The notes beneath the pieces were generated by a model. That model made no database searches. It saw nothing but the letters and a program-made list of their open reading frames with translations, and was not told where the DNA came from. Positions 1 through 33,957 of a DNA stretch of 64,000 nucleotides are shown here, piece by piece. This DNA comes from Escherichia coli. GTDB lineage: Bacteria > Pseudomonadota > Gammaproteobacteria > Enterobacterales > Enterobacteriaceae. Position 1 is the first letter of the stretch; each line of letters begins with the position of its first letter. The position numbers and the translations under genes were made by a program. The stretch lies in NCBI RefSeq assembly GCF_003334355.1, contig NZ_QOWP01000013.1, one strand, 5' to 3'.

Positions 1-77
1 TGTTTTTGTCATGTGAGTCACCTCTGACTGAGAGTTTACTCACTTAGCCGCGTGTCCACTATTGCTGGGTAAGATCA
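1..77 (-). mobile_element. IS3 left terminal inverted repeat plus first 4 codons of orfA (insE); element body lies upstream of the window
   Basis: Reverse complement of 1-77 reads TGATCTTACCCAGCAATAGTGGACACGCGGCTAAGTGAGTAAACTCTCAGTCAGAGGTGACTCACATGACAAAAACA, matching the IS3 end and orfA start (ATG ACA AAA ACA = MTKT) as I recall them. All three plus-strand frames hit stops within nt 1-47. Confidence 0.85.
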
Positions 78-695
78 GATAGCCCATCAGCCATAGCGGT
101 TGGGCAGCGTAAAGACGGGGAAATCTACACAGCGGATCTCAAAAGTAAGGCGCTTGCATTCACGATGGCACACGCACTTGAGCTCGGTGATAAAATGATT
201 TCAATCAATCTATTACCTATGACCCTGGTTAACGAACCTGACGCAGTCTCTTTTTTACTTAATGAAATAAAGGCCAATGCTCTGGTGCCTGAACAAATCA
301 TCGTTGAATTTACTGAAAGTGAAGTCATATCTCGGTTTGATGAGTTTGCCGAAGCGATTAAATCGCTAAAGGCTGCTGGTATCAGTGTAGCAATTGATCA
401 TTTTGGCGCAGGTTTTGCTGGTTTGTTACTCCTGTCACGCTTCCAGCCTGACAGAATTAAAATCAGTCAGGAATTGATTACCAATGTTCATAAAAGTGGG
501 CCACGGCAGGCAATTATTCAGGCGATCATAAAATGCTGTACATCACTTGAAATTCAAGTCAGTGCTATGGGCGTGGCAACACCAGAAGAGTGGATGTGGC
601 TTGAATCCGCAGGAATTGAGATGTTTCAGGGAGATCTGTTTGCTAAAGCTAAATTGAATGGTATCCCTTCCATAGCGTGGCCAGAGAAAAAATAA
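78..695 (+). pseudogene. bluF: bluF (ycgF) 3-prime fragment encoding the EAL-domain portion; 5-prime BLUF-domain part separated by the IS3 insertion
   Basis: Open frame from 78 (DSPSAIAVGQRKDGEIYTADLKSKALAFTMAHALELGDK...) to stop at 695; EAL-like C-terminus; synteny immediately upstream of bluR. Preceded directly by the IS3 end; no in-frame continuation upstream. Confidence 0.7.
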
Positions 696-814
696 TTTTC
701 AGCACATTCTTTCACATGATTTCAGTAAATCATCGTGAAAATGAATACGTTACGTTTAAATTTAATCCACATTAAAAATAATGTTTCATCCAATTTAGCT
801 GAAATCTTATTTAT

Positions 815-848
815 ACTTTGTACAATTTTAGCGTATATTGTACAAAGT
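815..848. promoter_or_regulatory. Perfect 12-bp inverted repeat ACTTTGTACAAT-N10-ATTGTACAAAGT upstream of bluR; candidate MerR-type operator
   Basis: Seen directly in sequence about 50-85 bp upstream of the bluR GTG start; the factor that binds it is inferred, not known. Confidence 0.4.
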
Positions 849-899
849 ATTATTGGGTCGTGTACAGGCGACGGAGATTTGTGACCGCAAGGAGGAATT

Positions 900-1631
900 G
901 TGGCTTATTACAGCATTGGTGATGTTGCTGAACGTTGCGGGATTAATCCTGTCACTCTCCGGGCCTGGCAACGCCGCTACGGTTTGTTAAAACCACAGCG
1001 CAGTGAAGGCGGACACCGACTCTTTGATGAAGAAGACATACAACGCATCGAAGAGATCAAGCGTTGGATAAGTAATGGCGTCCCTGTAGGCAAAGTTAAA
1101 GCATTACTGGAAACCACCAGCCAGGATACGGAAGATGACTGGAGCCGCCTGCAAGAAGAGATGATGTCAATTCTTCGCATGGCTAATCCTGCCAAACTAC
1201 GCGCGAGAATTATTTCACTGGGTCGAGAGTACCCAGTAGATCAATTGATTAATCATGTTTACCTTCCTGTTCGCCAGCGTCTCGTGCTTGATCACAACAC
1301 CTCCCGCATTATGAGCAGTATGTTTGACGGCGCATTAATTGAATACGCAGCAACCTCGCTTTTCGAAATGCGCCGTAAGCCCGGTAAAGAAGCCATTCTG
1401 ATGGCGTGGAATGTTGAAGAGAGAGCACGATTGTGGCTGGAAGCATGGCGTTTATCATTGTCAGGATGGCACATTTCTGTTCTTGCTGATCCCATTGAAT
1501 CGCCGCGCCCGGAACTGTTCCCGACGCAAACATTGATTGTCTGGACAGGCATGGCACCAACGAGAAGGCAAAACGAACTTTTACAACACTGGGGTGAGCA
1601 AGGTTATAAAGTCATCTTTCATGCCCCCTAA
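900..1631 (+). CDS. bluR: MerR-family transcriptional repressor BluR (YcgE)
   Basis: 243-aa ORF with GTG start preceded by AAGGAGG; N-terminal MerR HTH ([30 protein letters not shown]); synteny bluF-bluR-ycgX. Confidence 0.85.
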
Positions 1632-1851
1632 TTTCACCTTTATCCCGCCCCTTAGACAGAATGTTATAATCTGAACCCACAACAGCGTTTGTACCGGAGC
1701 TGGTCCGTTGCAAAATGCTCACCGGGAGAATTCAGATATTCCCTCTATCACACTCTGTACATATCACAGCCAAAGGACAGACCAGATTGAAGTGGTAAAA
1801 CCGATCGTGCACACTACGCAGTCTCACAACTAACAAGAGGTTATTATCCTG

Positions 1852-2256
1852 ATGGATCAGGTCGTTGTTTTTCAAAAGATGTTTGAGCAAGTGAGAAAAG
1901 AGCAAAACTTCTCCTGGTTTTATTCAGAATTAAAACATCACCGTATTGCACATTACATTTATTATCTGGCTACGGATAACATCAGAATTATTACTCACGA
2001 TGATACGGTTTTGTTATTAAGAGGAACCAGGAACCTGTTAAAAGTTAGTACGACCAAGAACCCTGCTAAAATAAAAGAGGCCGCATTGCTTCATATTTGC
2101 GGAAAATCTACATTTCGGGAATACTGTTCAACACTGGCAGGCGCGGGCGTTTTCCGGTGGGTTACTGATGTTAATCATAACAAACGCAGTTACTACGCCA
2201 TTGATAATACGCTTTTATATATTGAAGATGTAGAAAATAATAAACCATTAATCTAG
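1852..2256 (+). CDS. ycgX: DUF1398-family protein YcgX
   Basis: 134-aa ORF; length and position between bluR and iraM match the K-12 ycgX. Confidence 0.75.
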   Translation: MDQVVVFQKMFEQVRKEQNFSWFYSELKHHRIAHYIYYLATDNIRIITHDDTVLLLRGTRNLLKVSTTKNPAKIKEAALLHICGKSTFREYCSTLAGAGVFRWVTDVNHNKRSYYAIDNTLLYIEDVENNKPLI

Positions 2257-2465
2257 CTAAAGTTGGATACTTAAGAAATGCTTCATAATTCAGTAAGGCA
2301 TTAGCATAATGGAAATAAAAGTGCAGAGACTATCTCTATGGATGATTAATACTGTCTTTTTATTGTCACCCATAAATAATCACCAGACTAATACTATCAA
2401 CTTGATATTTGAAATGTGATCACTTGACTTTTGATACGTTATTTTATAACGGTTAACATATTTAT

Positions 2466-2512
2466 AAAAACAACGGCCGTGCCACACGTCCGTTTCAATA
2501 CTTAACGCACAT
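2466..2512 (-). terminator. Terminator-like hairpin (ACGGCCGTG..CACGTCCGT) with T-run on the minus strand; imperfect copy of the icd terminator
   Basis: Hairpin plus TGTTTTT on the minus strand; about 80 percent identical over 45 bp to 3333-3380. Confidence 0.45.
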
Positions 2513-2955
2513 GTATTTTGGTTTAGTCATCATCCGGTTATATGTATTTTAGCCAGGAACAGGTTAAATCATTCCTATATAACTCAAAAATTGAAACCTT
2601 ATTCTCATGTCATGCTTATATTCATTATTATCGTTATATAAAAAGGCAACCATAATGTTTAGCAAATTGGCACAAAGTAGCATAAAGGCTATGTTTTAAT
2701 TACAGGATGTTCAGTCATTTGAATGTATAACATTATAGCTAAACAAATCTAAAACGAAGTCAATAATTTATTGCTTTCACAAAATCTCATTTTGTTTAAC
2801 ATCCATTGAGATTCCTTGCTTTAAATTTTATTTTATATAAGCCATCATTTTAATTAATTTATTTTTTTGAGGGGGGGGTAATATACTCATATGCAAAATC
2901 AAGAAATAAACATCCTAATGAACCATATTAAATACCGTGGGATAAGACATAACAA

Positions 2956-3279
2956 ATGAAGTGGATAGTAATTGACACGGTAATTCAACCTACATGTGGT
3001 ATATCTTTTTCAGCCATATGGGGTAATATGAAAATGATCATCTGGTATCAATCTACTATATTTCTCCCTCCTGGCAGTATATTTACACCGGTTAAGTCTG
3101 GTATTATCCTTAAGGATAAAGAATATCCTATTACTATTTATCACATCGCACCATTCAACAAGGATTTATGGAGTTTACTCAAAAGCAGTCAAGAGTGTCC
3201 TCCAGGAGAAAGCAAAATAACAAATAAATGTTTACATAATAGTTGCATTATAAAAATATGCCCATATGGGCTCAAGTAA
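2956..3279 (+). CDS. iraM: Anti-adaptor protein IraM (YcgW), RssB inhibitor that stabilises RpoS
   Basis: 107-aa ORF ([18 protein letters not shown]...) in an AT-rich segment between ycgX and icd; matches my recollection of IraM in length and sequence. Confidence 0.75.
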
Positions 3280-3321
3280 TGGGCTTCATATAAATATGCT
3301 CGATATGCTATTAATAATATC

Positions 3322-3357
3322 CACATAAATAAAACAACGGGCGTGTTATACGCCCGT
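3322..3357 (-). terminator. icd rho-independent terminator
   Basis: Perfect 7-bp stem ACGGGCG/CGCCCGT with 7-nt loop immediately after the icd stop, followed on the minus strand by TGTTTTATTT. Confidence 0.75.
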
Positions 3358-3381
3358 TTCAATATTTAACACATGGAGAGA

Positions 3382-4632
3382 TTACATGTTTTCGATGATC
3401 GCTTCACCAAACTCTGAACATTTCAGCAGCTTAGCGCCTTCCATCAGACGTTCGAAGTCATAAGTTACGGTCTTGGCATTGATTGCGCCTTCCATACCTT
3501 TAACAATCAGGTCAGCCGCTTCAGTCCAACCCATATGGCGCAGCATCATCTCAGCGGAGAGAATAATAGAGCCAGGATTTACTTTGTCCTGACCGGCATA
3601 TTTCGGCGCAGTACCGTGGGTGGCTTCAAACAGGGCGCATTCGTCACCGATGTTTGCACCAGGGGCGATACCGATACCGCCAACCTGCGCTGCCAGGGCG
3701 TCAGAAATGTAGTCACCGTTCAGGTTCATACAGGCGATAACATCATATTCAGCCGGACGCAGCAGGATCTGTTGCAGGAATGCATCAGCAATCACGTCTT
3801 TAATGACGATCTCTTTGCCAGTGTTCGGGTTTTTAACTTTCAGCCACGGGCCACCGTCGATCAGTTCACCGCCAAACTCTTCACGCGCCAGCTGGTAGCC
3901 CCAGTCTTTAAACGCTCCTTCGGTGAACTTCATGATGTTGCCTTTGTGCACCAGAGTCACAGAGTCACGATCGTTAGCAATTGCGTATTCGATCGCTGCA
4001 CGAACCAGACGTTTGGTGCCTTCTTCCGAACACGGCTTAATACCGATACCACAATGTTCCGGGAAGCGAATTTTCTTCACCCCCATCTCTTCACGCAGGA
4101 ATTTAATCACTTTCTCGGCGTCGGCAGAGTCTGCTTTCCATTCGATACCCGCATAAATGTCTTCCGAGTTTTCACGGAAGATAACCATATCGGTCAGTTC
4201 AGGGTGTTTAACCGGGCTTGGAGTGCCCTGATAGTAACGTACCGGACGCAGGCAGATGTAGAGATCCAGTTCCTGGCGCAGGGCAACGTTCAGAGAGCGA
4301 ATACCGCCACCAACCGGAGTGGTCAGCGGACCTTTAATGGCAACGCGATATTCACGAATCAGATCAAGAGTTTCAGCAGGCAGCCAGACGTCCTGACCAT
4401 AAACCTGTGTGGATTTTTCACCGGTGTAAATTTCCATCCAGGAGATTTTACGCTCGCCTTTATAGGCTTTCTCGACTGCAGCGTCGACCACTTTCAGCAT
4501 GGCTGGGGTTACATCTACACCGATTCCATCACCTTCAATGTAAGGGATAATCGGATTTTCAGGAACGTTGAGTTTGCCGTTTTGCAGGGTGATCTTCTTG
4601 CCTTGTGCCGGAACAACTACTTTACTTTCCAT
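3382..4632 (-). CDS. icd: Isocitrate dehydrogenase (NADP), ancestral-type 3-prime end with no e14 prophage
   Basis: 416-aa [41 protein letters not shown]...; C-terminus ...[21 protein letters not shown]. Confidence 0.95.
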
Positions 4633-4803
4633 TCACCTCTCCTTCGAGCGCTACTGGTTTGCTCGTCTGCCACCACGTTGCATATGCGTTTGCGTCCTGC
4701 GATACGGATGCTTTAGAGCAATTTTTTGTTAATGATTTGTAATTGGCTTGTCAATACTACCCTATTGTTTGCCGTCATGAAAGATGCGCGTTATTAGGCT
4801 ATA

Positions 4804-33687: not shown

Positions 33688-33957
33688 CGTGACCCCCTTA
33701 AATTTATTAACCAATTGTTAATTAATGGTTATTAACATAGCTCTTAATTAACAACAGGTTACAGCAATGAAAATGTTCTTCGCTATTGAGAATAACATGA
33801 ATGGTGCATTGGTCATACCAAAATTGATGTTAATCAAGTTTTGTTGCTGAAAAGATAGGCGACTTTACCGGGTGAGATCAAAAAACAGAGTTTATTGTTT
33901 ATTATTTGAGCGAATTTGTGAGAGTGATATAGAGTGAGGGGTGTATGCAGGGCGTTC

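Follow-up and report, generated by a model that had tools for sequence, protein, structure and literature searches.

Background

The question raised by this locus is whether a long inverted repeat lying between bluF and bluR is an operator and, if so, which protein binds it and with what effect. The repeat lies in a 64-kb stretch of Escherichia coli DNA (contig NZ_QOWP01000013.1; hereafter the window, to which all positions refer unless a comparison locus is named), in which the bluF-bluR spacer carries no RefSeq annotation. An earlier, sequence-only reading of the window had described a repeat with 12-bp arms and had proposed that it forms a MerR-type operator, possibly serving autoregulation by BluR. 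Here we suggest, based on its position over a mapped promoter, its half-sites, which are identical to boxes already proven for BluR and MlrA, and its conservation across genera, that the palindrome is most likely a previously undocumented self-repression site of a well-known regulator.

BluR has so far been credited with essentially one physiological target, the ycgZ-ymgABC operon. It acts only as a repressor, and its DNase I footprint on the ycgZ promoter contains a GTACA...GTACA motif overlapping a TGTAC...GTACA motif, point mutations in which abolish both BluR binding and repression (Tschowri, Lindenberg & Hengge 2012, PMC3509220). At ycgZ, BluF has been shown to strip BluR off the DNA when activated. 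BluR and its paralogue MlrA, which differ at four residues of the helix-turn-helix (HTH), display cross-binding (PMC3509220). Accordingly, the MlrA box of csgD, AAAGTTGTACA-N12-TGCACAATTTT (Ogasawara et al. 2010, as quoted in PMC3509220 and PMC9662190), is also bound by BluR, albeit weakly (PMC3509220). For the bluR site itself, the searchable literature yielded no EMSA, footprint, ChIP, SELEX or reporter result, no report of autoregulation by BluR or MlrA, and no literal copy of the sequence. A 2009 Genes & Development study by Tschowri reportedly used ycgE::lacZ fusions.

Methods

BluR relatives from other species were compared over 80 loci (517 kb in total; individual loci are cited by L numbers), which were divided into three groups. 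Group A comprises bluF-linked bluR genes with a divergent ycgZ-ymgA-ariR operon, found in many Enterobacteriaceae. Group B comprises Erwiniaceae genes (Pantoea, Erwinia, Mixta) that lack a neighbouring bluF and are followed by yohO and yehW, which is the mlrA position. Group C comprises true enterobacterial MlrA genes (70-80% identical to MlrA; neighbours btsS, yohO and yehW). Both the window and the collected loci were scanned for pairs of TGTACA separated by about N8-16, with at most one mismatch.

Results and discussion

The bluR locus and its interrupted neighbour bluF

The plus strand of the window corresponds to the minus strand of K-12. The bluR gene (ycgE; 900..1631, plus strand) starts with GTG, encodes 243 amino acids, and is preceded by a Shine-Dalgarno sequence, AAGGAGG, that can be read directly off the sequence (889..895, plus strand). 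Upstream lies a 3' fragment of bluF, identified by homology and extending from about codon 198 to the stop codon (77..695, plus strand), so that the gene encoding the BluR antirepressor is severed from its promoter and from its BLUF domain. The interruption had been ascribed to IS3 by the sequence-only reading, and rightly so: positions 1..76 (minus strand) are the terminal 76 nt of the element, matches to this segment carry the annotation "IS3-like element", and K-12 homology starts at 77. From 77 to 3400 the window is 100% identical to MG1655, and the repeat itself is thus the same in K-12, where it lies at about 1,214,109-1,214,146. Downstream of bluR follow ycgX, iraM and an intact icd (3382-4632), which directly adjoins iraM with no e14 prophage between them. 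As the flanking 3.3 kb is nonetheless 100% identical to MG1655, the arrangement points to an e14-cured K-12-like strain or a close relative.

IS3 also interrupts bluF in at least five RefSeq E. coli genomes, though at other positions, as indicated by differing match spans (the 3' fragment, for example, is 699 nt long in L087 compared with 619 nt in the window). None of the complete RefSeq genomes shares the IS3-bluF junction of the window as one unbroken match. In light of these differing positions, bluF looks like a recurrent IS3 target, with blue-light-blind strains arising repeatedly.

A perfect inverted repeat built on two TGTACA hexamers

Positions 813-850 (no strand assigned) form a perfect inverted repeat of 38 bp, consisting of a 14-nt left arm (813-826, ATACTTTGTACAAT), a 10-nt centre (827-836) and a 14-nt right arm (837-850, ATTGTACAAAGTAT). 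The sequence-only reading had reported ACTTTGTACAAT-N10-ATTGTACAAAGT at 815-848, some 50-85 bp upstream of the bluR GTG; both statements hold, the repeat so delimited lying 52-85 nt before the GTG at 900, while complementarity continues for two bases further outward on each side. Among perfect inverted repeats with loops of up to 20 nt, this is the longest in the 64-kb window, the runners-up having 11-nt arms; in 30 first-order Markov shuffles of the window, arms never exceeded 12 nt. Divergent E. coli alleles of the spacer (95-98% identity) leave both arms unchanged, with one SNP in the centre and the others in the flanks.

The core of the repeat consists of two perfect TGTACA hexamers (819-824 and 839-844, neither assigned to a strand) separated by N14, i.e. 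20 bp from centre to centre. The extended pair TTGTACA-N8-20-TGTACAA occurs once in the window and in none of 100 dinucleotide shuffles. TGTACA as such is found 11 times in the 64 kb, and three of these copies fall within 819-866, starting at 819, 839 and 861. The third copy (861..866, no strand assigned), which follows the right hexamer after N16, is not constant within E. coli (strain EC13 has TGTAGA) and is missing from Citrobacter; it could serve as an accessory site or be a product of chance.

Elsewhere in the window, at 33715-33754, there is a second notable A/T-rich perfect inverted repeat, TTGTTAATTAA-N18-TTAATTAACAA, with 11-nt arms, which may be another operator.

The repeat overlaps the mapped bluR promoter

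bluR has its own sigma70 promoter, separate from that of bluF, and primer extension put the 5' end of its transcript 54 nt before the start codon (PMC3509220). In the window this corresponds to a transcription start at 846 (plus strand; 900-54), a position accurate to about 1 nt and taken from one primer-extension result. The hexamer pair that best fits this start in a consensus scan is TTTATA-18 bp-TATATT, giving a candidate -35 at 810..815 (plus strand), proposed from the scan, and a candidate -10 at 834..839 (plus strand), which agrees with both the scan and the mapped start, ends 6 nt before that start, and lies between, and partly over, the TGTACA hexamers. With the start at about 846 and TATATT at 834-839, the repeat covers about -33 to +5 of the sigma70 promoter. 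The left hexamer (about -27 to -22) sits in the promoter spacer, the right hexamer (about -7 to -2) between the -10 and +1, and the third hexamer at about +16 to +21. The repeat therefore shows the core-promoter overlap expected of an operator built from BluR/MlrA boxes.

These positions agree with the proposal of the sequence-only reading that the repeat overlaps a likely -10 element, TATATT. That reading had also held that a bluR start upstream of the palindrome would speak against an operator; the mapped start is not upstream of the palindrome but within its right arm. Shimada et al. 2014 (PMC3946193) predicted another sigma70 promoter, TTTAAA-16-AATAAT (755-782), upstream of the repeat, choosing this pair from an RNAP-sigma70 SELEX peak, not from a mapped start. 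The region is also flagged as H-NS-bound. bluR could thus have a second, upstream promoter at 755-782, and in transcripts starting there the palindrome would fall in the 5' UTR.

The half-sites match proven BluR and MlrA boxes

The sequence-only reading had pointed to the ycgZ promoter as the place to look for the half-site TTGTACA. The half-site matches both the BluR-footprinted ycgZ promoter, which in K-12 reads TCTGTACACATATTTCGTACAAGT, and the csgD MlrA box. Given the two perfect TGTACA copies at 819 and 839, the arms of the bluR repeat can be regarded as two copies of the family box, and the site has the paired GTACA/TGTACA motifs (819-824, 839-844) that an operator of this type should possess. 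The spacing of the hexamers is less uniform, being N14 at bluR as opposed to N7 at ycgZ, the proven BluR site, and N12 at csgD, the MlrA site.

The box pair is conserved upstream of BluR-type genes

A TGTACA pair is present between -130 and -40 of the start codon in 55 of the 68 BluR-type loci (groups A and B), the conserved pairs sitting 55-90 nt upstream of the BluR-like genes, and in none of the 12 Enterobacteriaceae mlrA loci of group C; it is likewise absent upstream of E. coli mlrA. By sequence comparison, then, the box pair upstream of bluR-like genes is conserved in dozens of genera, at an orthologous position whose surroundings have diverged. When the loci are aligned on the right hexamer, information is high only in the two hexamers, in an A-rich centre, and in a TAnnnT motif 16 nt downstream, whereas the flanks and the rest of the sequence between the boxes differ from genus to genus. 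The spacing is N13 in 41 cases and N14, N12 or N11 in four each (range N10-N14), which suggests that some variation in spacing is tolerated.

The pairs are also concentrated in a few places. Among the 105 pairs found in the 517 kb, 57 are at the BluR-type position and about 42 in the ycgZ-bluF control region, leaving about six elsewhere, as compared with roughly ten expected by chance. Some loci depart from the pattern: nine from the Enterobacter cloacae complex have a variant, TATACA-N7-TGTACA, instead of the pair, and two (L011 and L015), which have almost no bluF-bluR spacer and no intergenic bluR promoter, have a pair in front of bluF. The BluR-type gene itself is the one feature that all box-pair loci share, and this is the main argument for self-regulation. 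Of the possible BluR autoregulation put forward by the sequence-only reading, the autoregulatory idea is thus strengthened by a cross-genus conservation specific to BluR-like genes, while the N14 spacing, unlike the N7 of the proven BluR site, counts against it.

The relationship of the boxes to the promoter seems not to have remained constant. In most genera (L002-L076), though not in E. coli or Citrobacter, TAnnnT follows 16 nt after the right hexamer, which would make that hexamer a -35 element there and would not place it over the -10. The operator-promoter geometry of E. coli would therefore not be general, and the absence of TAnnnT from E. coli and Citrobacter implies that, in the lineage of Escherichia and Citrobacter, promoter and operator have moved with respect to each other.

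Two further conserved features were seen in the comparison loci. The ycgZ operator (TGTACA-N7/8-TGTACA) is itself conserved across genera (L008-L063, at about 1250-1450), and in many of them TGTATAAC, which resembles a -10 element, occurs exactly N13 downstream of it, so that the N13 spacing recurs there. In most Pantoea and Erwinia loci (e.g. L028, about 2858-2895), a conserved inverted repeat, TCTCATATTTGGGA...TCTCTTAAATGAGA, lies approximately 30 nt upstream of the TGTACA pair and may mark a site for a second regulator or else a divergent promoter.

Architecture and family history of BluR

BluR contains a MerR-type HTH (PF13411) followed by MlrA_helical and MlrA_C domains (Pfam). By sequence, the closest PDB relatives of its DNA-binding domain are CarH/LitR and CarA. 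The AlphaFold model of BluR (pLDDT 83, with a disordered linker at residues 73-76) matches DNA-bound CarH over its full length (TM 0.72 to 5c8e_B; winged HTH, helical bundle and Rossmann-like domain of the B12-binding type), while coiled-coil MerR proteins match it over the DNA-binding domain only (TMq about 0.28). As far as a predicted structure can indicate, this difference suggests that BluR is not a canonical MerR protein, and that BluR and MlrA may be related to CarH-type photoregulators but independent of B12. CarH forms oligomers by way of its C-terminal module and binds ACA-containing tandem repeats rather than a compact MerR dyad, and this class of repressor tolerates unusual half-site arrangements. 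Were BluR to bind as a CarH-like oligomer on tandem repeats, variable box spacing (13 bp at ycgZ, 17-20 bp at bluR) would be plausible.

For these reasons the label "MerR-type operator", used in the sequence-only reading, is apt only in that the site would serve a protein of the MerR family. The promoter spacer is 18 bp, not the 19-20 bp of MerR-type promoters; the dyad is centred at 831.5 instead of at the spacer centre (824.5), with half-site centres 20 bp apart rather than in a compact arrangement; and in place of a dimerising coiled coil BluR has the MlrA_helical and MlrA_C domains and a CarH-like predicted fold.

The group B genes of the Erwiniaceae are informative with respect to the origin of the operator. 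Although they occupy the mlrA position, these genes (L012-L017, L020-L028, L030, L032, L036-L037, L048 and L051, at about 3001-4700) are BluR-like: their products share 62-67% identity with BluR, compared with 53-57% with E. coli MlrA. The HTH reads GDVAERCG in groups A and B and GEVALLCD in group C, and a neighbour-joining tree places B as sister to A, with C on a long branch. These comparisons suggest that enterobacterial MlrA is a diverged copy and that the BluR-type protein and its operator look ancestral. A broader scenario can be drawn from this, although we consider it doubtful as a whole. In it, BluR and MlrA would descend from CarH-type photoregulators, would have no need of B12, and would act as higher-order oligomers on variably spaced TGTACA arrays. 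The ancestral gene at the mlrA locus, still present in Erwiniaceae, would have regulated itself via TGTACA-N13-TGTACA; after duplication BluR would have kept the operator, and enterobacterial MlrA would have lost both the operator and the ancestral HTH. In that case the E. coli boxes at 819, 839 and 861 would together amount to a multi-site operator of the CarH type, through which the response to blue light and cold limits itself.

Alternative explanations

The boxes could instead be bound by MlrA, either in place of BluR or besides it, in which case the curli activator controlled by sigmaS and c-di-GMP would cross-regulate bluR. The csgD box (TGTACA-N12-TGCACA, with AAAGTT/AATTTT flanks) is nearer in spacing to N13-14 than is the ycgZ BluR site, and the HTHs of the two proteins are similar enough, differing in only four residues, for cross-binding to occur (PMC3509220). 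Nevertheless, we regard such a role as unlikely, since the pair is conserved upstream of genes with the BluR-type HTH and absent upstream of MlrA-type genes, and since the Erwiniaceae genes that carry the pair at the mlrA locus appear to be the only family members found in their genomes; binding of each protein to its own promoter is the one explanation common to all box-pair loci. Genomic SELEX with MlrA, moreover, reportedly defined the csgD site only (literature cited in PMC3509220). A reading that dispenses with a dedicated regulator altogether, and takes the hexamers to be promoter elements only (a duplicated, -35-like TTGTACA), can appeal to the -35 geometry of the right hexamer in most genera, 16 nt before the conserved TAnnnT, and to the agreement of TGTACA with TTGACA at four of six positions. 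It leaves without a role, however, a second hexamer that is just as conserved, keeps a fixed distance of 17-20 bp upstream, and is not needed in a plain promoter; relative to the E. coli start at about 846, the hexamers lie at -27 and -7, away from -35; and the same hexamers compose the BluR-footprinted ycgZ operator. This reading therefore seems highly improbable.

Even less can be said for regulators from outside the family. RcdA, SrsR and H-NS have been reported at or near the blu/ycgZ region, the RcdA box (TTGTnnACA), which often occurs in pairs, resembles TTGTACA, and MarA might be added as a further candidate, yet none of them accounts for the co-occurrence of the boxes with BluR-type genes across genera, and we give such a regulator very little chance of being the one served by the repeat. 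The RcdA box needs two bases more than TTGTACA provides, and SELEX and footprinting place the RcdA sites in the ycgF-ycgZ spacer instead of the one separating bluF from bluR. Nor does the SrsR box (gCAGgTTTTGC) fall on the repeat: it is inside bluF at 403-419, where TTGGCGCAGGTTTTGCT was assigned to bluR as an "SrsR box" by genomic SELEX (PMC9181523). TTGGCGCAGGTTTTGCT at 403-419 has also been mapped by ChIP as an intragenic sigma54 site in bluF, 483 nt upstream of bluR (PMC4591121), and is as such equally off the repeat; the sigma54 and SrsR reports appear to describe the same sequence. Finally, the repeat might act as RNA, either as a hairpin that terminates or protects bluF mRNA or as a 5'-UTR structure in a longer bluR transcript from the promoter predicted at 755-782 (PMC3946193). 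Its predicted fold is stable (-16.9 kcal/mol; z = -5.75 against shuffles, a z-score that merely restates the palindrome), but the stem is A/U-rich, the loop measures 10 nt, and no U tract follows (the next bases are ATTATTGGG). A scan of 600-1000 for intrinsic terminators found none, and the only Rfam hit was a chance match to bantam (E = 0.21), i.e. no RNA family matched. With transcription of bluR mapped to begin within the right arm, bluR mRNA from that start would not contain the hairpin; other genera keep only boxes of 6-8 nt, not the extended complementarity; and the boxes are also present where there is no upstream bluF gene. We find a function as RNA scarcely credible.

A proposed model of BluR autoregulation

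Taken together, these observations make it probable, in our estimation, that BluR represses its own promoter via the palindrome and that BluF relieves this repression. Two TGTACA boxes bracket the -10 and the start site of the bluR sigma70 promoter, and at a centre-to-centre distance of 20 bp they would face the same side of the helix. By occupying both boxes, BluR would block RNA polymerase at -10/+1, resulting in negative autoregulation, to which a protein acting only as a repressor is well suited. If the structural model is correct, a flexible linker would connect its DNA-binding domains to a C-terminal module that oligomerises, as in CarH. Under blue light or low temperature, the activated BLUF-EAL antirepressor BluF would pull BluR off the DNA, thereby derepressing ycgZ-ymgABC and, transiently, bluR. 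Because BluF would thus also derepress bluR, more repressor would be made, and the response would be damped and reset.

The sequence-only reading had held that, with bluF disrupted, any such control would be locked in the repressed state, which is an overstatement: negative autoregulation deprived of its antirepressor settles at a low steady state, not at zero. With bluF split by IS3, the loop would lack its input, and bluR would remain at a self-repressed steady state without being fully silent. Such a permanently light-blind, self-repressed state would characterise the strain represented by the window and several others with IS3 in bluF. More generally, BluR autoregulation would add a negative feedback loop to the BluF/BluR pathway through which blue light and cold feed into Rcs, curli and biofilm control, and would help to explain the induction of bluR under the same low-temperature conditions that activate BluF. 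The consensus TTGTACA-N11-14-TGTACAA can be used for finding further BluR/MlrA-type sites, widely spaced boxes being, on the cross-genus data, the norm for the family.

Comparison with known systems

The closest counterpart of the bluR site is the BluR operator of ycgZ-ymgABC, which has the same TGTACA/GTACA boxes, belongs to the same gene cluster, overlaps a core promoter, is conserved across genera in the same manner, and follows the repressor-only logic, relieved by BluF, that is proposed here for bluR. The two sites differ in arrangement: at ycgZ the boxes are 13 bp apart (N7) and lie over the -35 and spacer of a sigmaS promoter, whereas at bluR their distance is 20 bp (N14) and they flank the -10 and start of a sigma70 promoter. 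The ycgZ site has been footprinted and proven by mutation; that of bluR is predicted. The csgD MlrA box resembles the bluR site in being an inverted, widely spaced pair of TGTACA-type hexamers with A/T-rich flanks, and the Pantoea counterpart of the bluR site (AAGTTGTACA-N13-TGTACAACTT) has nearly the same sequence as the csgD box. The latter, however, lies far upstream (about -113 to -146 according to the literature), serves activation, is bound by MlrA, and has N12 in place of N14.

Canonical MerR, CueR and SoxR share with BluR the MerR-type winged HTH (PF13411) and a site that overlaps the promoter spacer. Their half-sites, however, are about 10-12 bp apart compared with about 20 bp at bluR, where, unlike at canonical MerR operators, activation by DNA distortion is not expected. 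CarH, LitR and CarA (PDB 5C8D-F, 3WHP, 2JML) offer a better parallel: the sequence and predicted fold of BluR match CarH over its full length, and these proteins, like BluR, are repressors of a light pathway, occupying promoters until a light signal removes them. They differ from it in that BluR has no known B12 binding, light is sensed by the separate protein BluF, and the operator sequences are not the same. Given that autoregulation of transcription factors is common, self-repression by BluR would be unsurprising in kind. The kind of element is known; what would be new is a further, conserved example of it and a feedback edge in a small and well-studied network.
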